The translations under genes and the position numbers were made by a program. Shown piece after piece: positions 1 to 30,919 of a stretch of DNA of 64,000 bases. Under the pieces are notes generated by a model. It was not told where the DNA came from and searched no databases. It was given only the letters and a program-made list of their open reading frames with translations. Origin of the DNA: Thermodesulfobacteriota bacterium (GTDB taxonomy: Bacteria > Desulfobacterota_D > UBA1144 > Nemesobacterales > UBA2774); the NCBI GenBank assembly GCA_040754335.1, contig JBFMCV010000003.1:47356-111355 (forward strand), given 5' to 3'. Position 1 is the stretch's first letter. Each line of letters begins with the position of its first letter.

Positions 1-238
1 TTCCGAGCCACACGAGCGGCATCCCGTCGGGCACAACTATGTCAGCTGAGTTGAGAACCTTTTTATACTCGGGGTTGAGCCACGACTCGGTAACTACGTG
101 CGTATTCGTTACAGCTATGTAATGCCCGTGGTCTTTCTCTTCGATCCATCCGGTCATCATGCGCACCACATCGTCTATCTGAACCGCAGCGACCTCTACG
201 CCCAGTATTCCGTATCTATCAGGCTTCGTGCTATTCAT
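1..238 (-). CDS. Glycosyltransferase, WecB/TagA/CpsF (GT26) family, N-terminal part; C-terminus lies beyond the window start
   Basis: Manual reverse translation of 238..1 gives MNSTKPDRYGILGVEVAAVQIDDVVRMMTGWIEEKDHGHYIAVTNTHVVTESWLNPEYKKVLNSADIVVPDGMPLVWLG, which is typical of the WecB/TagA N-terminus (ILGV.V., V.T.N.H, ...DG.PLV). ATG at 236-238. Confidence 0.5.
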   Translation of the reverse strand, partial: MNSTKPDRYGILGVEVAAVQIDDVVRMMTGWIEEKDHGHYIAVTNTHVVTESWLNPEYKKVLNSADIVVPDGMPLVWLG

Positions 239-295
239 ACAAGGTTTTCCTTATGGCATTTATTTTTCGGACGCGAGATCTCTTACATTACAGGC

Positions 296-2313: not shown

Positions 2314-2390
2314 CTTCTCAGTCCTCCTCGGAATCGTAATAGTTTGATTGTTTTATACGGAACACCATCGTTCCGGCCCTCCTTGCTTTC

Positions 2391-5114: not shown

Positions 5115-5124
5115 CTTAATTTCC

Positions 5125-7668: not shown

Positions 7669-7777
7669 CTTATTTAGGGATCAGAAAATATTCGTGAAGT
7701 AATATAAGCGCGGGAGACACGAAGCCACTCTTCCATAGCATGCTTCCCGCACGTCGTGGAAAAGCGAGGGAGGGGAC

Positions 7778-7975
7778 CTAATATATCGCCTTGAGCTCGA
7801 GGTTTCTTATCACAACCCCCAGCATCGCCTTCTCACACTGCATGCATATCCAGAGACCCGACATCGTCTTATTCCTGACGTCGTCAAGGTATTGGTCTCT
7901 CACCTCGAAGATCAAAAACCCTCCGCACCTCTCGCACTTGTCGTTTGTCCTGATAGTTACCGGATTCACTCTCAT
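7778..7975 (-). CDS. Small zinc-ribbon protein (65 aa), hypothetical
   Basis: CERCGG...CMQCEK: two CxxC pairs about 27 aa apart. Confidence 0.3.
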   Translation of the reverse strand: MRVNPVTIRTNDKCERCGGFLIFEVRDQYLDDVRNKTMSGLWICMQCEKAMLGVVIRNLELKAIY

Positions 7976-8077
7976 GTTCCAGCCTCACTTTTGTTTAATT
8001 CATGATAAACGTTCGAATTTGAAAGCACGGTCCCTAACCTCCTCGATACTTCCAACATGTGTATGATGAAACCGATC

Positions 8078-9424: not shown

Positions 9425-9498
9425 TTTTAAATGCCGATTCTGCTCCGTTTTTGAAAGTGAGGAATTAGGGCCCGGACGTCATGGTCCGGACTCAGGCT

Positions 9499-11067: not shown

Positions 11068-11188
11068 CGCCTTTTCGGGAATTCAGACCGCCTGTCCAGG
11101 GGTTCCGTTGACGCATTCGGCACAAACATTACTCACTGGCTTCCGACCACGATCGATATACTGATAAAATCGATTTTTAAGAGAGACA

Positions 11189-13555: not shown

Positions 13556-13578
13556 GTTAAACCTCCTCTCCGATATCT

Positions 13579-14586
13579 CTAATTTCTCGGAGGGTTATAT
13601 CCCACGCCCCCGAGTCCCCATATATTGAACTGAAGACCGTAAAAGAATTTCTTTATCCCGCTCGCCCCTACAATGACTGCGTCTTTTTCGTTAAGAAGCG
13701 GGTCCTCCGCTCCACCCTCGTGAATGCTGTTTAAATCGACTTCCACGATCTCTTTTCGACCGCTATCCGTATGATGAATCAGCTTAATGTCGCTCTTGTC
13801 GGCATAGCTTGCAACTCCGCCTGCCATAACGATCGCTTCGCTAAGCGTTGTTTTTCCCTGATTGATAGGGTACGCTCCGGGTTTCGTCACAGCGCCCTCC
13901 ACAAAGACATTAGCCGCTTCGGGAACATAAACTAAATCACCGGGCTGGATATCGAGATCCATGTCGGCCCCGTTTCCCGACACCACTTTGTCGAGGTCCA
14001 CGAGATAAGAGCTCTTCCCGCCGTTATTATCCGCTCTCGTTACGAGAACAGTCGTACCTGCCTTATCGCTCAATCCCTCAGCCGACGCAAGTACGTCCAA
14101 GAGACTCTGCTTACCTAACAACTCGTAATTTCCTGGCTTGTTTACATAACCCATGACAGCCACAACCTTACTCTTGTGCTCCTTCACGAACACGCTGACA
14201 TGAGGATTGTCGATGTAGTCACCCGACCTCAAAAGGTTCTCGATCTTTACCTCTGCATCCCTCGCTGTGAGTCCGTCGACGTTGACGTTATTGAGAAGAG
14301 GGACCGTTATATCACCCCTCGAGCTCACCCGCACGGTGGTAGTCAGCTCCTTTGACTCGAACACATTGATCTCGAGTAGGTCCGCAGGACCGATAAGATA
14401 GTCGTCCGGTGACGTCGCTGCGGCAGGAAGCCCCTTGGATAGAAGCTTTGAGTTTACGTTTCCGATTTCTTCAGGAGGTCCTGCTTCTTCTTCGGATATA
14501 CTCGTGCTTCTGACGCTGCTCCCGCCCCCGCAACCTGCAGCAAAACTCGTGAGAAGAAATAAAATAAAGAGATATCTTTTAACCAT
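13579..14586 (-). CDS. wza: Polysaccharide export outer-membrane lipoprotein (Wza-like, Poly_export + SLBB)
   Basis: Lipoprotein signal (LLTSFAAGC). Poly_export motif (YLIGPADLLEINVF...GDITVPLL..V.V.GLT), followed by SLBB-like repeats. Confidence 0.75.
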   Translation of the reverse strand: MVKRYLFILFLLTSFAAGCGGGSSVRSTSISEEEAGPPEEIGNVNSKLLSKGLPAAATSPDDYLIGPADLLEINVFESKELTTTVRVSSRGDITVPLLNNVNVDGLTARDAEVKIENLLRSGDYIDNPHVSVFVKEHKSKVVAVMGYVNKPGNYELLGKQSLLDVLASAEGLSDKAGTTVLVTRADNNGGKSSYLVDLDKVVSGNGADMDLDIQPGDLVYVPEAANVFVEGAVTKPGAYPINQGKTTLSEAIVMAGGVASYADKSDIKLIHHTDSGRKEIVEVDLNSIHEGGAEDPLLNEKDAVIVGASGIKKFFYGLQFNIWGLGGVGYNPPRN

Positions 14587-14759
14587 GTTACCCTCCCCAT
14601 GGGCACGAAAGAACGATAATTCACCTTGGGATTAACTGCTTTTACGGCTGTCCGGAACGCGCGAACACGGGATTTGACACAGCTTCGCCACCTGACTCAC
14701 ATCCCTAAACTCACTACGCCGTTATCCGGGAACCGGTTTATTACAAAGCCGGCAAACAA

Positions 14760-15350
14760 TCAAACTAATTCAATATCAGCCGTGTTTATATCAACAGCCA
14801 CGGACCGCTTAATGATATCGATCGAAATAACGAGTCTTTTGTTCCCTTTCCCGGAAAGTACCTTTCCCGTAATTCCCGCGAGCGGGCCGTTTATGACTCT
14901 TACTTCTTTCCCCTCCTCAAAATACGGGTACGGATCGCTCTCCATTTTCGCTTCCAAGAATTTTCTGACAGAATCTATCTGATCATTCGGGACAGGCTGG
15001 AGCCTGCCGTTTGCGCTCAGTATTCTGACCACCCCTCGAGTGTTCAGAACTTGAAAAATCGCGAGTGAATCAAGCGGGTGGATTCGCACAAAAAGGTAGC
15101 CGGGGAAAAGCGGGAGCTGAATCCGTTTCTTCCTGTCTATCCACTGACTGACGACATCCCTCAGAGGGAGAAAAGTCTCGATCCCCCTTTTCTCAATAGA
15201 GCGGTTGACCGCCTTTTCATGCCTGACGTTGGTGTAAACCGCATACCATTCTTTGTGCTCATTGTGCGCGCCGATGTCGAAGTTACCGGACGAGAGGGTT
15301 CTCTCCTTGTGCACAGATTGCGTGATGTCAGTTTCGACGATTTTATTCAT
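14760..15350 (-). CDS. NusG-family transcription antiterminator paralog (RfaH/UpxY-like)
   Basis: NGN domain (WYAVYTNVRHEK...GIETFLPL) and a KOW-like C-terminus. The ATG overlaps the stop of the upstream receiver gene by 8 nt. Sits immediately upstream of the EPS operon. Confidence 0.65.
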   Translation of the reverse strand: MNKIVETDITQSVHKERTLSSGNFDIGAHNEHKEWYAVYTNVRHEKAVNRSIEKRGIETFLPLRDVVSQWIDRKKRIQLPLFPGYLFVRIHPLDSLAIFQVLNTRGVVRILSANGRLQPVPNDQIDSVRKFLEAKMESDPYPYFEEGKEVRVINGPLAGITGKVLSGKGNKRLVISIDIIKRSVAVDINTADIELV

Positions 15351-15774
15351 AATATTTCCGTCCCGATGCCGGTCTCAGAGCCCCAGGCGGGCCCTCTTGC
15401 GCCGATGAACCATGCTTCTTTGCCAGCCTGTTTATAATTCTTGCAACCTCATCGAATTCCGTGGATTTATCCAGGAAATAATCCGCTCCCTCATCTAAAC
15501 ATTTTTTTCTATACTGAGGGTATGGAAAGTTCGTGAGCATTATTATTTTCTGATCGGAACGACTATTCTTAAACTTTTTAAGAAGTTGTATTCCATTCCA
15601 CTCATCCATGCGTATGTCGAGTATTATGACGTTCGGTTTGAGGTTATTGTTTGCCAGAATCGCGCTTCGTCCGTCTTCAGCCTGCTCCACGATATCCACT
15701 CCGTCAATCGAATCAAGTAAACTTACCAACCTGTCACGCACAATCTTGGAATCATCCACTACTAAAACCTTCAT
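15343..15774 (-). CDS. Single-domain response regulator (CheY-like receiver)
   Basis: MKVLVVDDS...ILDIRMDEWNG...MLT receiver motifs. Confidence 0.75.
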   Translation of the reverse strand: MKVLVVDDSKIVRDRLVSLLDSIDGVDIVEQAEDGRSAILANNNLKPNVIILDIRMDEWNGIQLLKKFKNSRSDQKIIMLTNFPYPQYRKKCLDEGADYFLDKSTEFDEVARIINRLAKKHGSSAQEGPPGALRPASGRKYYE

Positions 15775-16050
15775 GATATTGTTATCCGAACAGTTTTGTA
15801 CTGAGCATAACGTATAGGCGTTAAATTAGAAATCAGGAAACTTCCCTAATTTATATAGGACTCTGGATAATAGTTTTGTAGGGATTTTCCTACAATTGCA
15901 TCAAGCAGAAAGACTGCAAAGGTTGAGCAGAGGAATTCTGCTAATTGATCATTTACTCTGACAAGAAGCGTATTAATTGAATTACATGCCGCAAATGTTT
16001 CAGAATGTCGGAGTAAATGCCGGAAGGTTACATTGCAAAATACGCCTGAG

Positions 16051-16680
16051 CTAAACGAGGGCGTGCCTGATGGAATAATTTATGAGCTCGGCGTTCGTTT
16101 TCATGTTCATTTTCTGTAGTATGCGCGTGCGGTATGTGCTCACAGTCTTTTCGCTTAAAAATAGCTCATTCGATATCTCTTTTATCGTCTTACCCATCGC
16201 AATCATGCACAACACCTGGAACTCGCGGTTCGAGAGGGCCTCATCTGGCGTCGAAGAGGAATTATCATCCAAATCTTGAGCCAACTTTTCAGCGAGAGAC
16301 GGACTCACGTACTTGCCCCCGGCGACAACCTTCCTCACAGCTCTCACGAGCTCTTCGGGGGCGCTGTCTTTGGTCATATAACCTGCAGCACCGGCTTTAA
16401 GAACTCTTACGGCATACAAGCTTTCCGGGTAAATGCTTATTATAAGCACGTTCATTCCGGCATGTTCCCTCTTTAACTGCTCCAGAAGATCGAGCCCGTT
16501 CCTATCGGGAAGCGATATATCGAGCAGTATCACATCAAACTTCGTATTGCGGATTAACTCCAGGGCCTCTCTCGCTGTTCTCGCTTCGTCATAAACAGAG
16601 ATATCGGATTCGTTCTCAAGAATAAATTTCAGCCCCATCCTTACTACAGGGTGGTCATCAGCAATAAGCACCTTAATCAT
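16051..16680 (-). CDS. NarL/FixJ-family response regulator (receiver + LuxR HTH)
   Basis: IADDHPVVR...LLDISLPDRNG receiver, plus a LuxR-type HTH (LSNREFQVL...KTVSTYRTRILQKM). Confidence 0.85.
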   Translation of the reverse strand: MIKVLIADDHPVVRMGLKFILENESDISVYDEARTAREALELIRNTKFDVILLDISLPDRNGLDLLEQLKREHAGMNVLIISIYPESLYAVRVLKAGAAGYMTKDSAPEELVRAVRKVVAGGKYVSPSLAEKLAQDLDDNSSSTPDEALSNREFQVLCMIAMGKTIKEISNELFLSEKTVSTYRTRILQKMNMKTNAELINYSIRHALV

Positions 16681-17482
16681 TCGTTTTCCTCCTACTCGGA
16701 ATGAAGATTGACACCTTGGTCCCCTTCCCGCTCTTGCCTACTATATCTACGTCTCCTCCGAATAAAAGAGCCCTTTCCCTGATACCTAGAAGTCCCAAGG
16801 ACTGGGGAGCGGAAATATCCACCGTTGAAATACCCTTTCCGTTATCTATGACTTCAAGCTTGTACTTGTTACGGTATTGTTTTAACTTAACCTTGACCGT
16901 CGTCGCCCCAGAATGTCGCGCTACATTCGTCAGAGTTTCCTGAAAAATCCGGAATACGGCGGTAGCGTACTCCCTTTCGAGCTCCATGCATTCAAGCTCG
17001 GAGACGAAAATACACTTAATTCCCGTCAGCTTCTCGAAGTCCTGCGCCTGCCATTCGATGGCTCCGATTGTCCCGAGGTCATCGAGTATGCCGGGCCTCA
17101 GCTCCATCGCAATCCTGCGGACCGATTGAATGTTCGAGTCTATAAGCGCTGACATTTTCCTGATTATTTCGTTCAGCGGCTCCGTCAGGGTCTTGTCAAA
17201 TTTCTCATCGAGCCGAGCTTTCAACAAACCCAGGTCTATTTTAAGCGCCGTTAGCGACTGGCCGAGCTCATCATGAACCTCACGCGATATTTTTGTCCTC
17301 TCTTCTTCGCGTACGGACTCAAGGTGCTTAGTCAGAGCACGTAGCTGTTTATAAGAATTTTTGAGCTCTCTTTCTTTGAACCTTCTCTTGGTGATCTCTT
17401 TTCTCAGAGTTTCGTTAGTCTCTTCGAGCTCCGCATTCCTATTATCGACATGCGTGTCAGACTTTGAATTTATCCCTTTCAC
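16673..17482 (-). CDS. Cytoplasmic sensor histidine kinase (HisKA_3 + HATPase_c, NarX/DegS-like), no TM segment
   Basis: N-terminal coiled coil. H-box REVHDELGQSLTALK. C-terminal ATPase motifs (NVARHS..., DNGKGI, GLLGIRERA). Overlaps the RR gene start by 8 nt. Confidence 0.8.
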   Translation of the reverse strand: MKGINSKSDTHVDNRNAELEETNETLRKEITKRRFKERELKNSYKQLRALTKHLESVREEERTKISREVHDELGQSLTALKIDLGLLKARLDEKFDKTLTEPLNEIIRKMSALIDSNIQSVRRIAMELRPGILDDLGTIGAIEWQAQDFEKLTGIKCIFVSELECMELEREYATAVFRIFQETLTNVARHSGATTVKVKLKQYRNKYKLEVIDNGKGISTVDISAPQSLGLLGIRERALLFGGDVDIVGKSGKGTKVSIFIPSRRKTND

Positions 17483-17959
17483 CTTGCGGACTCCGCACTT
17501 CTATCGGATGGTATCCAATACCGTTCGTTTATTTAGACATATAAATATCCGTGCCACCCTGCAATAATCTCGGATATATATATCTAGAAGTTCTGCGGGT
17601 TAACAATCCCTGGCATCGTTCCGCATGTTTCCACATCTCGAAGTGTGGAAAACGAGATTTCAATCCAGGATCCATTTAGTAAAGCGACGGGAGCAAATAT
17701 CGAGTCTTCTTTCTCCGAAACATTCATTCTTGTAAGCCTAACTTATAAAAAATCACAATCAAGCAAAATTTAAATGAAGGTATAGAAGGTATGAACAATC
17801 TTTGCAGTTCATAGCCCTAGGTAAAATTCATGGCAGTGATTCCGGTATGATACGATTGAAATTACCGATCAAAAACTAATTAATTAGAACAGCCATGTCG
17901 TAAAAACAGGGACACCAAGAATGTGAAATACAACTCACTGTTGTTGGAAGATAATGAGG

Positions 17960-18014
17960 TGGCGGAGGGCGAGGGATTCGAACCCCCAAGTCCTTGCGGA
18001 CGCCGGTTTTCAAG
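17960..18014 (-). repeat. 55-bp exact copy of the 3' half of tRNA-Ser (anticodon loop to CCA). It is a tRNA-derived fragment and not a functional tRNA.
   Basis: Identical to 28453..28507. The upstream sequence cannot form acceptor, D or anticodon stems (TAGGA cannot pair with ACCGG). Confidence 0.7.
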
Positions 18015-18326
18015 TCCTATTCAGTGCGTATTCATAACTCTCCGGAGTCACCGAAATAATTGTAAACACACTTAAAAAAACGATTTCCATCTATTACATC
18101 TGGTTCAATTGGTTCTATATGGTGGCAAGAATTATGGATGGTTCTTAGAAAATGCCTAGAAAGAATTGAGCGCTATAGAATGACACCTATTACTATTGTT
18201 CGGAATTAAAAATCTTCGGAGAAATGCGCCATTAAATATTATCTAGTTCGCCACACGGCACATTGAATTGCCCGTGAGTACATTCTCTACTTCAAGTTTA
18301 AAACAGGCTTTTATAAAATTAGAACC

Positions 18327-19076
18327 TCAAATATCAATTTCCATCAAATCTTCAGCTAGAATAACATCCACATCCACATACTTCCTGACCTGGCTGATAA
18401 TATCTATTTCATCACAATCGGAATAAAGGTGTGTCAGAATAATTTTTTTGGCGCCTGAAGCTCTTCCTATCTTTCCGACTTCAGTAGGGGTAAGATGGGC
18501 ATGAAATTTAAGTTCGTCCGGAAAAGAACATTCGATAACTAACAAATCCGCTTCCCTAGCGAGCTCAATTAATTTTTCTGTATATCCAGTATCCCCGGAA
18601 TATACTAATGATTTCCCATTGGACTCTATTCTGTACGCAATGCTGTTCTCGGTATGAAATGTATCGCTCGCTACAAGAACAAAATCTTCGAGCGTTACCG
18701 GTTCCTCATTTATTTCTTTTACGGTTAGCAAGTCCGGAGCAATCCAGTCGTGGTAAGCTGACTTTAGAGATGTGTATAAATCAATGAAACCTCTTGGGCC
18801 CCATATTTCAAGTGGTTTTTCGCGGAATTTTTTTGGGTGAGGATATTTTGTAGCAAATAAAAATGGGATTAAATCCGCAGTATGATCGGGATGAAAGTGG
18901 GTTATGAATATATGGTCCACTTTCAGATAATCCACGCCGACCATGCCTAATTTCCATGTAGTGCCATTTCCGCAATCAAGTAAAACAGTTGATTTTGCAA
19001 GCTCCAGTGCGTAGCCTGATGAGCCTCTTCTAATGTTGGGGACACAAGTTCCGGAACCTAATATATGTAGTTTCAT
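18327..19076 (-). CDS. MBL-fold metallo-hydrolase (RNase Z/ElaC-like short form)
   Basis: HFHPDH metal-binding motif (HxHxDH) with a later D and H. The gene is conspicuously AT-rich compared with its neighbours. Confidence 0.6.
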   Translation of the reverse strand: MKLHILGSGTCVPNIRRGSSGYALELAKSTVLLDCGNGTTWKLGMVGVDYLKVDHIFITHFHPDHTADLIPFLFATKYPHPKKFREKPLEIWGPRGFIDLYTSLKSAYHDWIAPDLLTVKEINEEPVTLEDFVLVASDTFHTENSIAYRIESNGKSLVYSGDTGYTEKLIELAREADLLVIECSFPDELKFHAHLTPTEVGKIGRASGAKKIILTHLYSDCDEIDIISQVRKYVDVDVILAEDLMEIDI

Positions 19077-19674
19077 CTTACAAATTAAAGGGGTTATGAA
19101 CTAAATCCAGCTATCGGTATCTGAAGCTAAACACCGCCCAATCCTAGATTACTGCAATTTCTATACCTGTCTAAAAGTCGGGCCGAGGATAACATATATG
19201 AATAGAGTTCTATATCAAGGGCATTAGTCTCCAAGACAGCCTCTTTGCAATTAACCTTTGATAAGCCGACAATTACATGCTTCATAAGTATCTACAGATA
19301 CATCATATTAATCACTACTCCGTCCATGCATATTAAATATCCATACTCTCTACAATGCCATTCATACAGAAGAAATCACATATATAATAATTCTCTGGCT
19401 ATTATAATTAACAGAAATCGTTAAGCATAAATATTAAGCAATGCTGCTTAGTTCATGTGCATTTCCCGCTACGCATTATTTAGAAAAATCATTATCATCA
19501 GACGTGTATTTGACAAGAATCTGTGTCTATGCCTTACAGACTGAATAATTATTCAATCTTAGCAGACACTAAGCGAAATTTCGTAATATTGCTTGTCACT
19601 CCTTAAAAGATTACATCTCTAATCCTTTTCAGTGGCATTCATCTTGCCACGATATTTTATAGAAAGGGGGATGT

Positions 19675-21564
19675 ATGCCGACAGAACATACGGCGCAAAG
19701 AAAAAGCGCCGAGGATTGTCAACGAGTTAAATCTCCGATACAGGCATATCTAGAGCGGCTTCACGCAAAGTGCTCAAAGCTGCAAGATGGACAGATCGCT
19801 ACCTATATCCCCGAGCTATCCAAGGCGGACCCGAACTGGTTCGGCATCTGCATTGCAACCACAGACGGTCGGGTCTATGAAGTCGGCGATACGCGTCAGC
19901 CATTTACGATACAGTCGATCTCCAAACCGTTCGTATACGGCATAGCTCTTGAGGACAGAGGCATCAATACGGTGCTCGGAAAGATAGGTGTTGAGCCTAC
20001 AGGCGACGCTTTTAACTCGATCAGCCTGGCTCCCGAATCCGGCTGTCCGTTCAACCCTATGATCAATGCCGGCGCAATCGCCGCGACATCCCTTGTGGTT
20101 GGCGATTCCAGCGATGACAAGATGCAGCGCATTTTGAGAGTTTTCTCGACCTACGCTGGACGCGAGCTTTCCATTGATACAACTGTCTACAAATCGGAAA
20201 AAGAGACGGGCCATCGCAATCGAGCGATTGGTCATATGCTGCGCAACTTTAATATACTGAACGAGGATCCCGATATAGCCCTCGACCTCTACTTTCAGCA
20301 GTGCTCAATTTCAGTCGATGCTCGGGATCTTAGCCTTATGGCGGCCACTCTGGCGAACGGCGGGGTTAATCCGCTGACGAAGGATCGAGCAATAAGTGAT
20401 GAGTTCCTCGAAAACCTTATGACCATCATGACAACTTGCGGAATGTACGACTACGCCGGCGAGTGGATGTATTGGATCGGCATACCCGCCAAGAGCGGTG
20501 TCGCAGGGGGAATTATGGCGGTTATGCCAGGTCAGGCCGGGATCGGAGTATTTTCGCCGCCTCTAGATGCACGGGGGAATAGTGTCCGCGGGATCGAGGT
20601 TTGCAAGAACCTTTCGAGGGATTTTAACCTCCACTGCCTTCGCGTTCCGCGCTCCTCACGATCTGCCATCCGGGCTCAGTACGATATCTCCAAGATTAGA
20701 TCCAAACGGCTCCGCGGTGAGCGTGATTCGGAGATTCTCGATAAATCGGGCACCCGGGCAAAAGTTTATGAGCTGCAGGGGGACCTTGTTTTTTCGACCG
20801 TCGAAGTAACTGTCCGCAGGATTGTCGATGCAAGCGATACCCTGGATATCGCCGTCATCGATTTCAAGCGAGTCACAAATATAGAGGACTCGTCCGCCCA
20901 GATACTGCTCGAATTAATCAGGACTTTGGGAGTTAACGGAAAATTCCTTTTATTAGCGAGCTTACAGCAGAGACACTCGAAGTTCATAAGATTCCTGCAA
21001 GAACAGCTTACGAACGACGATCAAGAGAGAACCTGGCTACGCATATTTCCCGATATGGATATCGCAATAGAATGGTGCGAAAACCGTTTGATTGCAGGTC
21101 AACGCCTCGATGACGGCTCTCATGAGGTGAAGCTGGCGGAGCATGACCTCTGCCGCGGACTTACGACGGAAGCCGTAGCGTTCTTGGAAACTATACTTAA
21201 GAGAAGGCGTTATGAACCCGGAGAGCTCATAGTTCGAAAGGACGATCCGGCTGATGAAATCTACTTGCTCATGAGCGGTGAAGTGAGCGTCAGGATCGAC
21301 CTTCCCAACGGCCAAATCAAACGGCTTTCGACCCTTTCTCCCGGTATGGCGTTCGGCGAAATTGCCGTCATAAACCGCTCCGTGCGATCAGCAGACGTCC
21401 ACGCTGATAAACACGTAGAGTGCTATCTACTGTCAACGGCCGCATTCGAGGAGCTTGGCGAGACAAATCCCATGATCAAAATGACGCTTCTCCAAAATCT
21501 GTTACGCAATTTCTCTCGGATGCTTACTATGGTTGAGCGGGAAGTCACTACGCTCGCTTGGTGA
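19675..21564 (+). CDS. glsA: Glutaminase A fused to STAS and cyclic-nucleotide-binding (CAP-family) domains
   Basis: Glutaminase motifs (KPFVYGIALE, NPMINAGAI, SGVAGGI). STAS-like region (YELQGDLVFSTVE...). C-terminal cNMP domain with FGEIAV...RSADV (the PBC RSA motif). RBS AAAGGGGG upstream. Confidence 0.75.
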   Translation: MPTEHTAQRKSAEDCQRVKSPIQAYLERLHAKCSKLQDGQIATYIPELSKADPNWFGICIATTDGRVYEVGDTRQPFTIQSISKPFVYGIALEDRGINTVLGKIGVEPTGDAFNSISLAPESGCPFNPMINAGAIAATSLVVGDSSDDKMQRILRVFSTYAGRELSIDTTVYKSEKETGHRNRAIGHMLRNFNILNEDPDIALDLYFQQCSISVDARDLSLMAATLANGGVNPLTKDRAISDEFLENLMTIMTTCGMYDYAGEWMYWIGIPAKSGVAGGIMAVMPGQAGIGVFSPPLDARGNSVRGIEVCKNLSRDFNLHCLRVPRSSRSAIRAQYDISKIRSKRLRGERDSEILDKSGTRAKVYELQGDLVFSTVEVTVRRIVDASDTLDIAVIDFKRVTNIEDSSAQILLELIRTLGVNGKFLLLASLQQRHSKFIRFLQEQLTNDDQERTWLRIFPDMDIAIEWCENRLIAGQRLDDGSHEVKLAEHDLCRGLTTEAVAFLETILKRRRYEPGELIVRKDDPADEIYLLMSGEVSVRIDLPNGQIKRLSTLSPGMAFGEIAVINRSVRSADVHADKHVECYLLSTAAFEELGETNPMIKMTLLQNLLRNFSRMLTMVEREVTTLAW

Positions 21565-21645
21565 GTCACGAGTTTGTACCAGAACAATCATTAGGTTTTA
21601 TCCGTACAGGTCAGTCGCGGTAAAAATAAGAGAGAGGGGTGGAGA

Positions 21646-24600
21646 ATGAAGAGTAGGCGTTCCCATATCCTGTGTTTTGTTATGGGTACAAGTTTTTTGT
21701 ACGCATATTTGTATTCCCATGCCACTTTCGCGGAAACATGTGAAAAACCGGTTGCAAAAGTGGTCTCAGTTCAAGGAACCGTAGAGGCACAAAGGGCGGG
21801 CGAAACGCAGTGGCAAGAAGTAAAATTAAACGACACATACTGCCCGGGAGACAAGATCCGGGTGCAGGAGAAAAGCCGTGCCGACGTAACGCTCCTCGAG
21901 AAGTCGGTAATCCGTCTAAATCAAAATACCACGATAACGCTCGAAAATGTGAAGGAAGAACGGACGAGTGTTATAGACATGATCAAGGGAGCCGCTCATT
22001 TCTTCAGCAGTGGTCCAGACAGCCTTGAGGTACATACACCGTATACGACTGCAGGTGTCAGGGGAACGGAATTTCTCGTAAGCATTGAAGACGATAAGAC
22101 CTTGTTGTCGACATTCGAAGGTACAGTCGTGGCATCGAACGATGCCGGCAGCCTGACGCTTACCGGCGGCCAGTCAGCAATTGCCGAGGCGGGGAAGCCC
22201 CCGGTGCTCAGTATCGTGGCGCGTCCTCGAGATGCCGTACAATGGACACTCTACTATCCGCCCGTCCTTTATCTCAGTCCCGATGAATTTCAATCCGGGC
22301 CGGGCTGGGAAGGCATGGTTCGTAAATCCATCGAGCTTTACATAAGCGGGGATATTCAGGGAGCCTTCGACAGTATTAAGGATGTGCCTGAGGATGTCCG
22401 CGATCCGCGTTTTTTTACCTATCGGGCCTCACTGCTCTTGGCGGTGGGCCAGGTTAATGAAGCAGATGCCGATATCGAGCGCGCGCTGAGGCTCGACCCC
22501 AAATATAGCGACGCCTTCGCGCTTGAAACAATTATCTATATTGTAGAGAACGAAAAAGACAAAGCCCTTGATGCCGCAGAAAAAGCCGTGGAAACGAATC
22601 CCGACTCCGCCACGGCAGAGATCGCCCTTTCTTATGCACAGCAGGCAATGTTTGACCTGAAAGGCGCTCGAACAAGCCTTGAAAAGGCGGTGCAGCTTGA
22701 TCCTCAAAACGCGCTTGCGTGGGCACGGTTAGCAGAGATCTGGGCGTCATTCGGCGATCTAGGCAAAGCGCTCAATGCGGCACAGGAGGCCGTAGTCCTT
22801 GAGCCGAATCTCTCGAGGACGCAGACAGTTCTCGGCTTCGCATATCTGACCCAGGTCGATACAAAACAGGCAAAGGATGCATTTGAAAAAGCGATCGCCC
22901 TTGACCAGGCCGATTATCTCCCGAGGTTGGGCCTTGGTCTGGCGAAGATCCGGGATGGCGATCTGCACGGCGGCGGGAGGGAGATTGAGATTGCAGCAAG
23001 CCTGGATCCAAACAACTCAATTGTCCGCAGCTATCTGGGCAAGACCTACTTTGAAGAGAAACGCACCAAGCTGGATGTGCGCGAGTACGAAACCGCTAAA
23101 CAACTGGACCCCCTGGACCCGACACCATGGTTCTATGACGCGATAGCGAAACAAACGACGAATAGGCCGGTTGAGGCTCTCCAAAACATGCAAAAATCCA
23201 TTGAGTTAAACAACAACAGAGCTGTTTACAGATCGCGTCTGCTGCTCGACTCGGACCTGGCCGCACGCAGTGCCGGCCTGGCACGTATCTATACAGATCT
23301 CAGCTTCCAGCAGCTTGCCCTCGTTGAGGGATGGAAATCCGTTAACATTGACCCCTCGAGCTTTTCCGCACACCGGTTCCTGGCTGACTCATATGCTGTT
23401 TTACCCCGACACGAAATCGCCAGGGTGAGCGAGCTGCTGCAGTCACAGCTGCTTCAGCCCATCAACATCACGCCGATTCAGCCCCGGCTCGCGGAGAGTA
23501 ATCTATTTCTGATCTCCTCCCAAGGACCAGGCTCTGTCTCCTTCGATGAGTTCAACCCGCTTTTCAACCGCAACCAGGTAACCCTTCTGACGAGCGGCCT
23601 GGTTGCCGAAAATGAGACATGGGCCGGAGAAGGCGTTGTCTCGGCCATATATAATAAGGCCAGCTTCAGCGGGGGTTACTCATACTTCGGCACGGACGGG
23701 TTTAGAGAAAACGACGATCAGAAGGATCAGATCGCAACCGCCTATCTCCAATTGGAGCTCACTTACAAAACAAGCATTCAGGCTGAGTACCGCTATAGAA
23801 ACACAGAACTGGGAGACCTGGCACTCAGATTCTTTCCGGATGACTTCCTCCCAGGCTTGAGAAACAAGCAGGAAAGAAACTACTTCAGGGTCGGTGGACG
23901 GCACGCATTTTCCCCGGGTTCGGTCCTCATCGGCAACTTTACATATCAAAATGCAGATTTTAATTTGACGGACAAGCTTAGTTCCTTTGACGCGAAAAGA
24001 CCGGAAGACGCCTATAGCGCCGAGGCCCAACACCTGTTCCGTTCTCAATACATAAATCTCGTTAGCGGCGCGGGCTACTTCGATGTAAACGGAAGGATCG
24101 ATACGACTATAACGATTGATATTCCCCCGCCCGACGGGCCAATAATTGCTCAATCCACAACAAGTACGGACCTCCAGCACCTTAATATGTACATATACTC
24201 ATACTTGAACCCCATGAACAATGTGACGTTCACCCTTGGGGCAAGTGCCGACTTCCTGAGCGGCGACAGTCCCGATGTCGGGGATAAAGACAAGTTCAAT
24301 CCGAAATTCGGTATAACCTGGAATCCGATCCCGTCTACGACTTTACGCGCTGCGGCGTTCAGGGTGTTAAAGAGAACGCTGATTACGGACCAGACCCTGG
24401 AGCCGACCCAGGTCGCCGGCTTCAACCAATTTTTCGATGACGTCAACGGAACTGAATCATGGGTATTCGGCGGGGCTATCGATCAGAAATTCCCGAAGGA
24501 TTTCTTCGGTGGCGTACAATTTACAAAGAGGGATCTGGAAGTTCCGTTCCTGGATTTTACAGCCGATCCAGAAAATCCTCCGGTCCGGAATGAGGACGTC

Positions 24601-25035
24601 GACGAATATCTGGGTCTAGCCTACCTCTTCTGGGCTCCGCATCCATGGCTCGCGTTAAGAGCACAGTATTTATTCGAACGATTTGAGACTCAGGGTTTGA
24701 CCGACCAGCCGAAAGAGCTGACTACAAATCGTGTCCCCCTCGGGGTCAACTTCTTCCACCCTTCCGGATTGGGCTCTAATGTGACAGTGACTTACCTTAA
24801 TCAGGACGGGGATTTTCTGTCGCCGGACGGTGACGGATTTGTGTCAGGCGAAGATAACTTCTGGATCGTCGATGCAGCGGTCTATTACCGTCTGCCGAAA
24901 CGGTACGGTTTCATCACGGTAGGAGCGACGAATCTCTTTGACCAAGAGTTCAATTATTTTGAGGTAGACGTCGATAATCCGCGCATACAGCCTGGAAGGG
25001 TGTTCTATGCACGGGTTACACTGGCGCTTCCATAA
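21646..25035 (+). CDS. Large secreted protein with N-terminal FecR domain, TPR repeats and a C-terminal region resembling an outer-membrane beta-barrel
   Basis: Signal peptide. FecR-like segment (TVEAQRAGETQWQEV...AGVRGTEFLV). At least 6 TPR-like repeats (AFALETIIY..., ALSYAQQAM..., AWARLAEIW...). The C-terminal ~600 aa has alternating hydrophobic/polar beta-strand character with aromatic-rich ends. Confidence 0.55.
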   Translation: MKSRRSHILCFVMGTSFLYAYLYSHATFAETCEKPVAKVVSVQGTVEAQRAGETQWQEVKLNDTYCPGDKIRVQEKSRADVTLLEKSVIRLNQNTTITLENVKEERTSVIDMIKGAAHFFSSGPDSLEVHTPYTTAGVRGTEFLVSIEDDKTLLSTFEGTVVASNDAGSLTLTGGQSAIAEAGKPPVLSIVARPRDAVQWTLYYPPVLYLSPDEFQSGPGWEGMVRKSIELYISGDIQGAFDSIKDVPEDVRDPRFFTYRASLLLAVGQVNEADADIERALRLDPKYSDAFALETIIYIVENEKDKALDAAEKAVETNPDSATAEIALSYAQQAMFDLKGARTSLEKAVQLDPQNALAWARLAEIWASFGDLGKALNAAQEAVVLEPNLSRTQTVLGFAYLTQVDTKQAKDAFEKAIALDQADYLPRLGLGLAKIRDGDLHGGGREIEIAASLDPNNSIVRSYLGKTYFEEKRTKLDVREYETAKQLDPLDPTPWFYDAIAKQTTNRPVEALQNMQKSIELNNNRAVYRSRLLLDSDLAARSAGLARIYTDLSFQQLALVEGWKSVNIDPSSFSAHRFLADSYAVLPRHEIARVSELLQSQLLQPINITPIQPRLAESNLFLISSQGPGSVSFDEFNPLFNRNQVTLLTSGLVAENETWAGEGVVSAIYNKASFSGGYSYFGTDGFRENDDQKDQIATAYLQLELTYKTSIQAEYRYRNTELGDLALRFFPDDFLPGLRNKQERNYFRVGGRHAFSPGSVLIGNFTYQNADFNLTDKLSSFDAKRPEDAYSAEAQHLFRSQYINLVSGAGYFDVNGRIDTTITIDIPPPDGPIIAQSTTSTDLQHLNMYIYSYLNPMNNVTFTLGASADFLSGDSPDVGDKDKFNPKFGITWNPIPSTTLRAAAFRVLKRTLITDQTLEPTQVAGFNQFFDDVNGTESWVFGGAIDQKFPKDFFGGVQFTKRDLEVPFLDFTADPENPPVRNEDVDEYLGLAYLFWAPHPWLALRAQYLFERFETQGLTDQPKELTTNRVPLGVNFFHPSGLGSNVTVTYLNQDGDFLSPDGDGFVSGEDNFWIVDAAVYYRLPKRYGFITVGATNLFDQEFNYFEVDVDNPRIQPGRVFYARVTLALP

Positions 25036-25112
25036 TCGGAACAAATGAGCAAAGGCGGGGCGATTTTGTCAATGAGATGCAGAAAGGTAAAACACATAAG
25101 GAGGTTGTAATC

Positions 25113-25832
25113 ATGTTGGAGAGATTAACGCTGATTTGCCTGTTAGGTATGGTTCTCTTCCCGGTATTTGGGACTGTAGCCAGTGCGGCGACATGTCCTT
25201 CAGGTTATACGTATAAATGTCCGATCATTGGGGGGACAAAATGCTGCGCGTGCTGGAAGACGGGGAGCGAAATTTGTGACGCTGAAGTCACCGGATTGGG
25301 CAACATTAAAAACTGCGTCCCCGGTGTGAATTGCCCGGTCGTGACATGTTCTGTCTACGGTACAGTAGATTTAGGAGACGGATCGTGCGACCCCAATACA
25401 TTAGACCCTGACTGTGGCATCCAGGGCATCGCATATTGTGTAAACCCGGCAGGTAATTCTTCACAATCCCAGGGAAATCCATTTACTCTAGAGACGGTAC
25501 TTACTGGTGTAGCTGATATCGAGAAATGCGACAAGAATGGCAAATGTCAGAGGTCAGTCGAGGTCAATCCGGAGGATTGCCCGGACTGCTGCATAAATCC
25601 AAATTGGCAATTCAAAACTTTTACGGCCACACAATTCAACGGAGAGGTTTGCGTATGCCCCGGCGGGTACTCAACTGGAGGAGTTTGTTGCGCAGATATT
25701 GCACGACAACTTGACGGCAGTTGTGCGACAGCGGGCGATGAAGTCTGCCTCGCACAGCAATGTACTGCTGATTTGACAGGATACAAACCTGGGAGGAGCA
25801 TACCGTATAATTGCACCGACCTGCCGCAATAA
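25113..25832 (+). CDS. Secreted cysteine-rich protein (about 34 Cys in about 215 mature residues), hypothetical
   Basis: ATG at 25113 preceded by a perfect AAGGAGG. Signal peptide LICLLGMVLFPVFGTVASAA. Many CC, CxC and CxxC motifs. Confidence 0.6.
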   Translation: MLERLTLICLLGMVLFPVFGTVASAATCPSGYTYKCPIIGGTKCCACWKTGSEICDAEVTGLGNIKNCVPGVNCPVVTCSVYGTVDLGDGSCDPNTLDPDCGIQGIAYCVNPAGNSSQSQGNPFTLETVLTGVADIEKCDKNGKCQRSVEVNPEDCPDCCINPNWQFKTFTATQFNGEVCVCPGGYSTGGVCCADIARQLDGSCATAGDEVCLAQQCTADLTGYKPGRSIPYNCTDLPQ

Positions 25833-25948
25833 GTCGTGGCAGCGTGACACTGTGAGTCGATGCAGTTTGAGCATATACGGATTCCGTCGAGTATAGTCCG
25901 CGTAACAGATTCAGACCGCGGGTAACTTCTCTATCGACGGGTGTGCCT

Positions 25949-28219
25949 ATGAGATTATCTCTTAAACCCCTTTTCTCGATCAATCCTGTTTCTCTGACTC
26001 TAGGCACAATCCTGGTTGTTATAGTGCTCTTCCTGGCAAGAATAACGATCCTCGACCTTATCGAATTGAAAACTTACGACCTCCGATTTCTAACTCGCGG
26101 GCAGTTACCATCCTCCCCGGCGGTCGTTATAGCAGCCATAGACGAAAAAAGCCTAGATAGCGAAGGGCGCTGGCCCTGGCCCAGGTCCAAGATCGCCGCT
26201 CTCGTGGATATCCTTTCTCAAGACGGAGCCAAAGTGATCGGTTTTGACATCGGTTTCCTGGAGGCGGATGAGAACTCACAGCTTGCGTTGATCAATCAAT
26301 TTAGTCAGAAAGTAGATGCTCAATATGGTAAAAACTCACGGCTGGCCAGCTTCATACAAGAAAGCAAAAAGCGAGCCGACAACGACACGGCCCTGGCCGA
26401 AGCCATAAAAAAATCGTCCGCGGAAGTAGTTCTTGGATACTTCTTTCATATGAGTGAAGCCGACCTTGATTATAGTATCGAACAGAGCGAGATGGACAAA
26501 CAGCTTGAACGCATCAGTGATTCAAAATACCCTTTCGTACTTTACGAAGAACAGGGAACAGATTCCGTGCCCTTTATTAAAGCCTATGCGCCCGAGAGCA
26601 ATCTCGAAATTATCACCGAAGCGGCAGCCTCTTCGGGCTACTTCACCATGCGAAGTGATCAGGACGGTGTCCTCCGCTGGATGCCGCTCACTATACAGTA
26701 TGGCGAGGATTTGTTTCCTCCTCTGGCGGTCTTGTGTGCCTGGCAGTACCTGGGCAAACCTCAACTGATGGTTAAGGTCGGGCGATACGGAGTGGAAGAG
26801 ATACAGATGGGAGATCGTTTCATACCGACTGATGAAAGCGGTCAACTGCTCATTAATTACCTAGGCCCTCCAAAAACCTTTCCTCATCACTCTGCCAGCG
26901 ATATTCTGAGCGGCAAGTTCACTAAGGGAACTTTTAAAGATAAAATCGTGCTTGTTGGGGCCACAGCCACTGGCATCTATGATCTGAGGAACACACCCTT
27001 CAGCCCCTCATATCCCGGTGTGGAGGTTCATGCCAGTGTCATCGACAACATATTGACACAAAATTTCATCTCGAAGCCCAGATGGTCGAGGATTTACGAC
27101 CTGCTCGCCATAATTATTCTGGGAGTTCTCATCGGGATCGCCATACCGCGTATGAGTGCACTTAAAGGGTTTTTGTTTGTCGCCGGACTGATCATCTTAT
27201 ACATCTCCGTGGTACTGTGGCTCTTCGTCAGAGCCGGAGTGTGGCTCAATATCGTCTATCCCCTGCTGACGCTATCAATGAGTTATATGGTCCTTACCGT
27301 TTATTATTATGCTACGGAAGAGCGGGAACGTAAGAAAATAAAAAAGGCATTCACTCATTATGTAGCACCCGTGGTAATCGAAGCCATGCTGAAGGACCCG
27401 TCCCAGTTAAAACTGGGGGGAGATGAGAAGGTTCTGACAGTCTTGTTCAGCGACCTTCAGGGATTTACTTCCGCATCTGAGCGTTATGCCCCTCATGAGA
27501 TGATCGTGATTCTGAGCGAATACTATGCCCGGATGACAGAACAGGTATTCGCACATCAGGGGATGCTGAAAGAATACGTGGGTGACGAGATGATGGCTAT
27601 TTTTGGCGCCCCTATTGATCAGAACGACCATGCGGAAAGAGCGTGCGCCGCAGCCCTGGCCATGCGGGATAATCGAAATACGCTGAACGAAGAGTGGGCC
27701 GAGATTGGACGCCCGCCCCTGATCGCCAGGACAGGGATCAACTCGGGCCGCATGCTTGTAGGGAATCTGGGATCCAAATATCGTTTTGCTTACGGCGTTC
27801 TAGGGGACCATGTGAACCTGGGCTCCCGTCTTGAGGGTCTAAACAAGGGTTACGGTACTGAAATCCTCATCGGTGAGAACACAGCACAGCTTGTCGGCGA
27901 TAAGTTTCTCCTGCGGGAAGTCGACATGGTGCAGGTGGTCGGCAGGGTACAGCCCGTGCGTATATATGAGCTCCTGGCCGCACACGGCACGCCACTGCAT
28001 CATGAGCAGGAGAAAGCATTCGGTTTCTATGCTGCAGGGCTGGAAGCGTATCGAGAACGGCAATGGAACGAAGCTCTTGGTATATTCAACAAATGCCTGG
28101 GGCTATGTCCCGATGACGGTCCATCACGAACAATGGCGGAGCGTTGTCAAATCTACCGGAAGACACCGCCCCCTGAAGAGTGGGACGGTGTTTTTGAAGC
28201 GATCCACAAATTCAAGTGA
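25949..28219 (+). CDS. CHASE2-sensor class III adenylate/guanylate cyclase with C-terminal TPR-like region
   Basis: N-terminal TM helix, a periplasmic CHASE2-like domain (about 330 aa), 3 TM helices, then a CYCc domain (VLFSDLQGFTSASE...VGDEMMAIFGAP...GINSGRMLVGNLGS...YGVLGDHVNLGSRLE). Confidence 0.8.
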   Translation: MRLSLKPLFSINPVSLTLGTILVVIVLFLARITILDLIELKTYDLRFLTRGQLPSSPAVVIAAIDEKSLDSEGRWPWPRSKIAALVDILSQDGAKVIGFDIGFLEADENSQLALINQFSQKVDAQYGKNSRLASFIQESKKRADNDTALAEAIKKSSAEVVLGYFFHMSEADLDYSIEQSEMDKQLERISDSKYPFVLYEEQGTDSVPFIKAYAPESNLEIITEAAASSGYFTMRSDQDGVLRWMPLTIQYGEDLFPPLAVLCAWQYLGKPQLMVKVGRYGVEEIQMGDRFIPTDESGQLLINYLGPPKTFPHHSASDILSGKFTKGTFKDKIVLVGATATGIYDLRNTPFSPSYPGVEVHASVIDNILTQNFISKPRWSRIYDLLAIIILGVLIGIAIPRMSALKGFLFVAGLIILYISVVLWLFVRAGVWLNIVYPLLTLSMSYMVLTVYYYATEERERKKIKKAFTHYVAPVVIEAMLKDPSQLKLGGDEKVLTVLFSDLQGFTSASERYAPHEMIVILSEYYARMTEQVFAHQGMLKEYVGDEMMAIFGAPIDQNDHAERACAAALAMRDNRNTLNEEWAEIGRPPLIARTGINSGRMLVGNLGSKYRFAYGVLGDHVNLGSRLEGLNKGYGTEILIGENTAQLVGDKFLLREVDMVQVVGRVQPVRIYELLAAHGTPLHHEQEKAFGFYAAGLEAYRERQWNEALGIFNKCLGLCPDDGPSRTMAERCQIYRKTPPPEEWDGVFEAIHKFK

Positions 28220-28452
28220 TATCGTTCCCGTTAGGACACCGGACTATTATCCGGGAATTCTAAAAGTTTTTATATTTGCGAGAATTCCGAAACTTATAAC
28301 TTAGAGCATCCTCTATATATTATTATCTTCTTAAGCGCCAGATCTCCCGAAGCTCTAATTCGAACTTAGAAAATACTTAGAAAGGCAAATTTGACGTGAC
28401 ATTTATCCTGTTTGTAAAGCAATTGCTATCGGCTATGATCATTCAACAAATC

Positions 28453-28538
28453 TGGCGGAGGGCGAGGGATTCGAACCCCCAAGTCCTTGCGGACGCCGGT
28501 TTTCAAGACCGGTGCATTAGCCGTTCTGCCAGCCCTCC
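28453..28538 (-). tRNA. tRNA-Ser (anticodon UGA), type II with long variable arm, CCA encoded
   Basis: Reverse complement: GGAGGGCTGGCAGAACGGCTAATGCACCGGTCTTGAAAACCGGCGTCCGCAAGGACTTGGGGGTTCGAATCCCTCGCCCTCCGCCA. 7-bp acceptor stem, G73 discriminator, anticodon stem CCGGT/ACCGG with loop CTTGAAA, T-loop GGTTCGAATCC. Confidence 0.85.
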
Positions 28539-29967: not shown

Positions 29968-30246
29968 TTAAAAGAGATCGAACTCGAACTCTATTAAATC
30001 ATCGTCGTAATCGTCATCATAGTAGTAGTATCTGACGTCATCGTCGGGATCGACATAATAGTAGTATTTGTCTTCATCATAATCGGCGCGATCAACAAAA
30101 TTAACGCTGGTATCCGGCTGCTCGTAAACATAACGGTGCTCCACTACGCGTCCGGACTGTATAATATAATAATCGTCAGCAAAACTATTAACAGCGGCGC
30201 CAAAAATTAACGAACCCAATAATGTCAATGTCACAATGAGTTTTTT
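29968..30246 (-). CDS. Small secreted Tyr/Asp-rich protein (paralog 1)
   Basis: Start at MKKLIV with AGGAGGTG upstream, then a signal peptide. C-terminal DKYYYYVDPDDDVRYYYYDDDYDDD. Confidence 0.6.
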   Translation of the reverse strand, partial: KKLIVTLTLLGSLIFGAAVNSFADDYYIIQSGRVVEHRYVYEQPDTSVNFVDRADYDEDKYYYYVDPDDDVRYYYYDDDYDDDLIEFEFDLF

Positions 30247-30320
30247 CATTTCATTCACCTCCTGGTAAAAATCGACAACAGCCTCATTCATTCGAGTTCA
30301 ATCAAACGGGCGTCGCCGGT

Positions 30321-30611
30321 TTAATCGTCATAATAGTAAAAGTATCTGACATCGCCATCAGGCTCGACGATGTAGCGGTATTCGATGTCGTCGTCAGGGG
30401 CAACGTAACGGTAGTATTTGACCTCATAATCATCGGGATCTATATAATAAACGTTCCGCTCCCGTTCTATATATACGGGCGGGTCATTTACGTAACGATG
30501 CTGCACGTATCCCGGCGGCACGATGTAATAATAGTCGTCGGCCAAGCTAATGGACGCAGCGCCTATAATAAAAACGCTTAACATCATTAAAGTTACTATG
30601 AATTTTCTCAT
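30321..30611 (-). CDS. Small secreted Tyr/Asp-rich protein (paralog 2)
   Basis: Start at MRKFIV with the identical upstream context GGAGGTGAATGAAATGA. Signal peptide; DDYYYIVPPGY...RYFYYYDD. Confidence 0.6.
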   Translation of the reverse strand: MRKFIVTLMMLSVFIIGAASISLADDYYYIVPPGYVQHRYVNDPPVYIERERNVYYIDPDDYEVKYYRYVAPDDDIEYRYIVEPDGDVRYFYYYDD

Positions 30612-30919
30612 TTCATTCACCTCCTGTGAAAATTCAACGATTTAATGTCAAACAACACATATAGGGGGGCAAAGACCATGCCATGCAGCTAAAAATATTC
30701 ACAATATGCAGTGATTCCGGGGAATTTGTAATCCTATCGGCTTTACATCAGGATTACGAATGCAGGTTCATTGTCCGATCTCATACACAATTTATTGTAG
30801 GCGAAGGTACTGAATGATTTATTTATTTCTCCAACAAAGAGATGAGAAAATTTGCCATTTCCCATCCGCCTTACACCCTATAATGGAAGGCGTAATAATC
30901 CTCACGAGACCGAAGCGCA

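Follow-up and report, generated by a model that had tools for sequence, protein, structure and literature searches.

A genomic island, probably integrated at tRNA-Ser(UGA) and now without an integrase, in a Dadabacteria-like bacterium

Some of the prophages and genomic islands that integrate into tRNA genes reportedly do so by a crossover in the anticodon loop. Here we describe a locus of similar layout, at positions 17960-28538 of a 64,000-nucleotide stretch (the window) of contig JBFMCV010000003.1, in which five genes lie between an intact tRNA-Ser(UGA) gene and a displaced copy of its 3′ half. With the classical tRNA-integrating elements it shares identity running from the anticodon loop to the tRNA 3′ end, a symmetrical stem around a 7-nt loop, and ends formed by an intact tRNA and a 3′ fragment. 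It differs from them in that the integrase usually adjacent to an attachment (att) site was not found, nor were phage genes (PHROGs searches with a 251-aa island protein and with open reading frames (ORFs) of related loci).

Elements that keep both attL and attR, without genes for integration or transfer, have been described as cis-mobilizable elements (CIMEs), and in the Streptococcus islands related to ICESt1 they accrete in tandem at att sites (PMC5704250). The window island resembles a CIME, as it has perfect att cores and both motif-bearing arms and no integration or transfer genes were found in it; the tandem arrays of its relatives, split by att copies, are what accretion is expected to produce. 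The differences are that the host is an uncultivated, Dadabacteria-like bacterium, that no parental integrative and conjugative or integrative and mobilizable element and no conjugation genes are known for it, that cis-mobilization is putative here, and that the target is the anticodon loop of a tRNA, whereas ICESt1 uses the 3′ end of fda.

In the tycheposon islands of Prochlorococcus, cargo elements sit at specific tRNA genes, tRNA-Ser(tga) among them, and leave partial tRNAs (10.1101/2020.12.28.424599). Several elements may stand in a row between these partial tRNAs, with fragmented integrases and degenerate remnants, and most of the island DNA has no hallmark genes (10.1101/2020.12.28.424599). 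Integration at a tRNA that leaves a partial tRNA, and stacking at one site (in the relatives), are common to both systems. In contrast, the tycheposon hallmarks, a specific clade of tyrosine recombinases and a primase/helicase module, were not found in the window, and both phylum and cargo are different. In Dehalococcoides, islands at ssrA, a single-copy small-RNA gene, are arranged in tandem, bounded by direct repeats of the 3′ end of the gene with conserved repeat-adjacent sequence, and some of them, without an integration module, are proposed to be cis-mobilizable (PMC3146451). Tandem islands, 3′-end repeats, kept flanking sequence and members without an integration module thus recur here. 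However, the ssrA islands have a serine recombinase (DsiB) and a 20-bp repeat at the T-loop of tmRNA, whereas the repeat here is 55-58 bp long and starts in a tRNA anticodon loop, and the relatives carry remnants of tyrosine recombinases. Taking these comparisons with the results below, we consider that the segment is probably a genomic island that arose by site-specific integration into tRNA-Ser(UGA) and is now CIME-like and devoid of an integrase.

The tRNA-derived repeat and its arms

The window has a single tRNA gene, tRNA-Ser(UGA), at 28453-28538 on the minus strand with its CCA encoded (ARAGORN and Rfam). A repeat search paired 17960-18017 with 28453-28510 as a 58-nt direct repeat of 98% identity, made up of 55 identical nucleotides out of 55, one mismatch (T versus A) and a further CC. 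The 55-bp perfect repeat of the tRNA 3′ half reported by the first-pass annotation, with the intact tRNA at one end, is thus borne out. A 31-nt core pattern with up to 3 mismatches allowed matched these two sites only, with 0.00 matches expected from shuffles. On the tRNA strand, the identity starts at C32 in the anticodon loop (CTTGAAA), takes in the long variable arm and the T arm and ends with the CCA, so that it is limited by the exact 3′ end of the tRNA on one side and by the junction of the anticodon stem and loop on the other. The displaced copy lies downstream of the tRNA in the same orientation; 10,438 bp separate the two copies (10,493 bp from start to start). The features of the segment are as follows.

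17960-18014, minus strand: attR core, the displaced tRNA-Ser(UGA) 3′ half from anticodon loop to CCA; identical at 55/55 positions to 28453-28507, no tRNA call there
18015-18326, no strand: P arm, on the element side next to the fragment; non-coding (no ORF of at least 60 aa), with the conserved block ACGATTTCCATCTATTACAT (18080-18099) and ATTATGGATGGTT, then the arm motif
18144-18163, plus strand: arm motif CTTAGAAAATGCCTAGAAAG, two TTAGAAA half-sites 11 bp apart, 129 nt inside the left core
18327-19076, minus strand: cargo gene 1, metallo-β-lactamase (MBL)-fold hydrolase, RNase Z-like; GC content at third codon positions (GC3) 0.35; Pfam Lactamase_B_2
19675-21564, plus strand: cargo gene 2, glutaminase A fused to STAS and cyclic-nucleotide (cNMP)-binding domains; Pfam, and NCBIfam TIGR03814 above its cut-off
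21646-25035, plus strand: cargo gene 3, FecR-domain/TPR protein of 1129 aa; domain matches
25077-25832, plus strand: cargo gene 4, 251-aa protein; no family match
25943-28219, plus strand: cargo gene 5, CHASE2 sensor fused to a class III adenylate/guanylate cyclase; domain matches
28220-28452, no strand: P′ arm, on the element side next to the intact tRNA; non-coding, with an arm motif at 28365-28384
28365-28384, plus strand: second copy of the arm motif, CTTAGAAAATACTTAGAAAG, 68 nt from the tRNA 3′ end, oriented as the first copy
28453-28538, minus strand: intact tRNA-Ser(UGA) (ARAGORN; Rfam RF00005, 55.8 bits), its 3′ 55 nt (28453-28507) forming the attL core

The 20-nt arm motif, CTTAGAAAATRCYTAGAAAG, occurs once at each end of the island, and these are its two matches in the 64 kb, against 0.01 expected; 1.14 Mb of unrelated loci gave none. 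On contigs of relatives (handles beginning with L, described below) it stands at an equal distance from the fragments in L085, L090, L092 and L100, and at an equal distance from the tRNA in L081 and L100. About 190 bp of the P arm are kept, whatever the cargo, beside seven copies of the fragment (the window, L100, L090, L092, L086, L087 and L085), at 74-86% nucleotide identity beside fragments that precede different cargo. The P′ arm is kept in the window, L100 and L081 and partly in L085. Similarity of the arms between islands of different cargo is about equal to that between islands of the same cargo. If the element were circularised, the two motif copies would flank one core, which is the layout of arm-type integrase sites; judging from this layout, the motif may serve in integrase binding.

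The first-pass annotation read the repeats as attL and attR of a tRNA-targeting element, which agrees with the boundaries and arms described here, and suggested, as one possibility, an ancient integration, which is uncertain: the window fragment is identical to its tRNA at 55 of 55 positions, and the fragment of the homologous L100 island matches at 49 of 53 (4 mismatches), while the arms of these two islands are 22-27% different. Had both descended from one shared integration, about 6-7 neutral changes would be expected in the core, and the Poisson probability of none is about 0.001. The perfect core of the window hints at recent integration, at gene conversion by the tRNA or at continued use of the site, and does not discriminate among the three.

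The tRNA-Ser(UGA) site in relatives

A metagenome scan with the exact 55-mer returned ten contigs, and further contigs were obtained through homologues of the glutaminase, at 76-93% amino acid identity. The closest named relatives are Dadabacteria/UBA2774, and the window glutaminase itself, for which an exact look-up gave no record, proved in the homologue search to be 100% identical to a protein of an NCBI metagenome-assembled genome labelled Thermodesulfobacteriota.

The contigs show the tRNA-Ser site in different states of occupancy. In L084, the tRNA lies directly against an RTX/RsmI flank, constituting an empty site. In L085, whose right flank is about 80% identical to that of the window, a fragment is followed by 6.8 kb of unrelated glycosylation genes (GT2, YfhO, methyltransferase, GT2 and RmlD) and the intact tRNA, with the same repeat and arms. 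Contig L087 overlaps L085 at 99.7%, and together they give the order RsmI-RTX, fragment, 1.85 kb, fragment, 6.8 kb, tRNA. The comparison with an empty site that the first-pass annotation proposed is therefore available: the flank that abuts the tRNA in L084 is about 8.9 kb away from it in L087 and L085 joined, and about 16.4 kb away in L095. The same annotation proposed looking for further att-like repeats, and these were found as tandem arrays in relatives, in the joined L087 and L085 and in L092, where the module is followed by a fragment with P arm and then by more arm remnants.

The window-type arms recur in other contigs as well. L100, an independent Logan assembly, matches the island at about 80% nucleotide identity from the fragment through the motif-bearing P arm, the same five genes and the motif-bearing P′ arm to the tRNA, of which it has the first 30 nt. 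L090 and L086 have a fragment with a window-type P arm, followed in L090 by the 3′ end of the MBL gene; in L081 the tRNA is followed by a window-type P′ arm with the motif; and L097 retains a 36-nt stump of the fragment. The boundary in the anticodon loop is common to the fragments of the window, L085, L086, L087 (two copies), L090, L092 and L100.

These data bear on a simpler origin of the repeat, a local, recombinase-free partial duplication of the tRNA by slippage or as a segment. The lack of an integrase would be explained by it. Such a duplication fails, however, because the arms are common to islands with other, unrelated cargo; the end points (tRNA 3′ end and anticodon loop) are identical in all copies, relatives have empty and multiply filled sites, and the same architecture occurs at tRNA-Thr along with integrase remnants (see below). 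Relatives free of the repeat, yet with identical content between the same two positions, are the pattern that the first-pass annotation associated with a local duplication. This pattern was not seen: L095 and L096, in which the module adjoins the tRNA and no left repeat is present, have different DNA as their left flank. We regard local duplication as effectively refuted and give it almost no credence.

The module, its other sites and the search for an integrase

The composition of the five island genes is atypical: their GC3 is 0.35-0.58, against 0.71 ± 0.04 in 20 core genes (Mann-Whitney p = 6e-4). The window contains a second MBL-fold hydrolase (44494-45213; Lactamase_B_3/B_2, 239 aa) in the core region, compositionally native with a GC3 of 0.73, as compared with 0.35 for the island MBL gene. 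The island MBL protein aligns over its full length with NCBIfam NF041851 (cyclic nucleotide-degrading phosphodiesterase) at 115.6 bits, far under the cut-off of 400, and the closest solved structures are metal-dependent hydrolases and RNase Z; by this similarity it is a possible cyclic-nucleotide phosphodiesterase. The label of cAMP-signalling module, given earlier to the enclosed DNA, is reasonable, though unproven. The 251-aa protein (25077-25832) had no match in Pfam, PHROGs or NCBIfam. Its gene is single-copy in the window and occurs as tandem duplicates of 71-82% nucleotide identity in four relatives (L091:15447-17093, L092:15446-17080, L098:10234-11866 and L099:10131-11772).

The five genes form a block that is kept among contigs at 74-85% nucleotide identity, with homology stopping at the stop codons of the MBL and cyclase genes and with different neighbours in every context. 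L094 has the same cargo bracketed a second time, independently, by a tRNA: tRNA-Thr(CGU) and an integrase remnant stand on one side, S8/PatG genes come between the remnant and the module, and beyond the module is a diverged tRNA-Thr 3′ half whose T stem differs. In L091, 5.3 kb separate a tRNA-Thr from a perfect 3′ fragment of tRNA-Thr, after which come the 102-aa C-terminus of an integrase and the MBL gene. Integrase remnants thus adjoin the module at tRNA-Thr in both contigs, and the tRNA-Ser version has no known ancestor element. In L098 and L099 the module lies about 460 bp from the 3′ end of tRNA-Arg(CCU). A tRNA-Arg fragment beyond the module was looked for in these two contigs and not found, there being only short tandem repeats with the last 14 nt of the tRNA downstream of it. 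These repeats (L098:14243-14800, L099:14300-14800) comprise three or four tandem units of about 46-90 nt, each beginning with the last 14 nt of tRNA-Arg(CCU), TGCGTCCCCGAGAG, and continuing with a hairpin; they could be either a small repeat element or a stack of mini att remnants. The tRNA-Thr island of L094 also contains, at 5088-8209, a subtilisin-like S8 peptidase, a PatG-domain protein and tandem repeats of 184-232 nt (7281-8209), which suggests a cyanobactin-like peptide maturation locus with repeated precursor cassettes.

We found no recombinase family in any of the scanned ORFs of at least 90 aa across the window, the five island genes included. Six-frame translations of 17483-18326 (which includes DNA left of the island) and of 19077-19674 had no Pfam match at E ≤ 1; the third intergenic stretch, 28220-28452, was not scanned. 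The absence of an integrase or excisionase between the repeats, as first annotated, therefore holds for the five ORFs and two of the three intergenic stretches, and a tyrosine integrase was equally lacking in the flanking ORFs scanned over the 64 kb. No transfer genes were found in the island. In IMG/VR, the 55-mer and the arm motif had 0 matches, and the fragment with the P arm had no blastn match among phages and plasmids. PHROGs returned nothing for the 251-aa protein or for the unannotated ORFs of the relatives' loci; the remaining four island genes have non-viral Pfam annotation, and genes for phage structure, packaging or replication were not found.

Two kinds of candidate for the integrase were rejected. 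Unannotated ORFs adjacent to att sites (300 aa in L087, 448 aa in L088, 667 aa in L082, 295 aa in L090 and 164 aa in L100), considered as novel recombinases, had no recombinase match in Pfam or PHROGs. By eye, the ORF downstream of the tRNA in L081 looks like the C-terminus of an AraC-type helix-turn-helix protein. A conserved 'mini-integrase' 5′ of tRNA-Ser, considered as a resident platform, dissolved on inspection: its homologues of 70-195 aa are truncated or frameshifted normal tyrosine integrases, and in L102 the integrase N-terminal domain lies in another frame. The remnants in the relatives are C-terminal parts of ordinary tyrosine recombinases with the HxxR...H...Y residues. As for an integron-like platform, no intact integrase adjoins the window tRNA, and in L081, L095 and L096 there are only C-terminal remnants, 5′ of the tRNA.

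Several observations weigh against the reading of the segment as one integrated island. No integrase of this att specificity, and no intact element joining the arms to an integrase, was found in the contigs, in IMG/VR or in the phage and plasmid collections. The remnants just mentioned lie immediately 5′ of tRNA-Ser(UGA) and co-oriented with it (L081:3736-4032, L095:19115-19546 and L096:19106-19534). An element that inserts at the 3′ half of the tRNA would not be expected to leave its integrase on this, the host ('B') side, and the window has no counterpart; because they are on the 5′ side of the tRNA and outside the islands, the remnants cannot be attributed to the att system described here. 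The module in L095 and L096 lies 92 bp from the intact tRNA-Ser, without arms or left fragment, and in L095 it falls within the 16.4 kb that reach to the RsmI-RTX flank. Contig L092 has it on the outer, B′ side of a fragment, with no P′ motif. The module could therefore be resident DNA in some lineages. The arm-less forms (L095, L092) could have arisen by deletion; alternatively, they could be the ancestral state, and an element could have captured flanking DNA later, as in the tycheposon model.

Taken to its full extent, this argument makes the module resident chromosomal DNA that was always downstream of tRNA-Ser, with the fragment and P arm left by a different, lost element or by a rearrangement, so that the two repeats would not belong to one unit. 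The arm-less L095 and L096, the outer position of the module in L092 and the cargo GC of about 0.50, near the window average of 0.52, are in favour of it. We nevertheless consider it unlikely, as the window and L100 have both arms, with the motif, around the module as if from one attP, and a simple integration at the tRNA cannot place a fragment beyond resident DNA. Moreover, neither L084 nor the joined L087 and L085 have the module at this site; in other relatives it is found at tRNA-Thr and tRNA-Arg, and its GC3 is well under that of core genes.

The DNA to the left of the fragment also fits uneasily with a single island, as it differs among the window, L090 and L100. Either older islands lie there, in agreement with the low GC3 of the left flank and with 30 nt left of the window fragment that resemble the end of the P′ arm in L087, or metagenome assemblies have broken or formed chimeras at the repeat. 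The latter would mean that the island is real and its left neighbour is not, the junction between the histidine kinase side and the fragment having been misjoined at a 55-58-bp repeat present in several copies per population. Such a chimera would account for left flanks that differ despite a common fragment, P arm and MBL gene, and it agrees with the contigs that end at or in the repeat (L083, L086, L088 and L100) and with a left-flank GC3 of 0.60 against 0.71 in the core genes on the right. It is nonetheless improbable in our view, more so than a resident module. Variable left flanks would equally result from tandem accretion of older islands, and the closest relative of the left flank is also from Dadabacteria. 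Indeed, the best match of the window-flank histidine kinase in a scan of a genome collection was Dadabacteria UBA2774 (L001), at 64% amino acid identity. Synteny with L001 covers the two-component genes and the adjacent NusG-like gene (14863-17449 in the window) and does not extend beyond; since it stops past those genes, L001 gives no empty site for the window's own flank.

Site-specific integration into tRNA-Ser(UGA) thus remains the preferred origin of the segment. We attribute it to a tyrosine integrase because the boundary in the anticodon loop is fixed, both sides have arms, occupancy varies, tandem arrays occur and relatives carry remnants of tyrosine recombinases. The attP of a circular element would have duplicated the part of the tRNA that extends from its anticodon loop to its CCA end, and the integrase would have swapped strands at the anticodon stem-loop. 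Integration would then have rebuilt the intact tRNA at one end (attL, tRNA and P′ arm) and pushed the 3′-half copy to the far end (attR, fragment and P arm), with the TTAGAAA-type motifs as putative arm-type binding sites. The integrase gene may have been lost later or never carried, and the island may now be fixed in place or be movable only by an integrase acting in trans. The cyclic-nucleotide module would travel as a unit among tRNA-linked islands of Dadabacteria-like bacteria. The idea of a decayed or immobilised island without an integrase, put forward at first annotation, is supported by the empty site, the same arms around other cargo, the arrays and the lack of an integrase in the 64 kb.

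Alternatively, and more tentatively, the islands may be live cassettes, i.e. integrase-less units of a core with a P arm of about 190 bp and a P′ arm of about 100 bp, swapped at tRNA-Ser by an integrase encoded elsewhere in the genome or by a transient helper. The hint comes from the perfect window core, which stands despite the 22-27% divergence of the arms from those of L100, and from arms that are about equally similar across cargo types. If so, Dadabacteria would have a tycheposon- or integron-like exchange of operon-sized cargo (signalling, glycosylation and others).

On the preferred reading, the locus shows how an uncultivated, genome-streamlined lineage related to Dadabacteria/UBA2774 gains and exchanges operon-sized functions, with tRNA-Ser(UGA), and apparently also tRNA-Thr(CGU) and tRNA-Arg(CCU), as docking sites. 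For annotation, the module (CHASE2 cyclase, cNMP-binding glutaminase, putative phosphodiesterase and FecR/TPR partners) belongs to the flexible and not to the core genome, and the repeat is a likely breakpoint or chimera point of metagenome assemblies. The mechanism is textbook, and the value of the locus lies chiefly in cataloguing and ecology; it would be greater if trans-mobilization of cassettes with arms and no integrase were demonstrated. The points of note are the host lineage, the well-preserved att arms and the mobile cyclic-nucleotide cargo.

Surroundings of the island

The left flank holds two-component genes, a NusG paralogue (14760-15350) and a polysaccharide export and synthesis cluster with GT4s, Wzy, Wzx, a sugar transferase, a Wzz/tyrosine kinase and Wza. 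Its GC3 (1-17482) is 0.45-0.68, under the core value of 0.71, and this flank, too, may be flexible and possibly represent an older island downstream of the same tRNA. One gene of the polysaccharide cluster (5125-7668, 847 aa) had no Pfam or NCBIfam match.

On the right, the tRNA is followed by small ORFs, a cupin and a phytase-like gene, and then by core genes: rpsB-tsf, serS, ffh, rimM-trmD-rplS and the ATP synthase operon. The small ORFs include an adjacent pair of 107 and 99 aa (29968-30638, minus strand) without Pfam match, which lies 5′ of the tRNA, where GC is low (0.42-0.45), and overlaps a 111-nt direct repeat of 70% identity (30166-30276 and 30528-30638). L082 and L089 do not have the 28.5-33 kb segment, and the 5′ side of the tRNA is thus variable too. 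A 587-aa gene to the right of the tRNA (33093-34856), again without Pfam or NCBIfam match, is kept beside tRNA-Ser in the same two contigs at about 68% nucleotide identity. Within the rimM-trmD-rplS cluster, a single 432-aa ORF (49262-50560) joins trmD (tRNA m1G methyltransferase) to a Methyltrn_RNA_4 domain, a SAM-dependent RNA methyltransferase, at its C-terminus.

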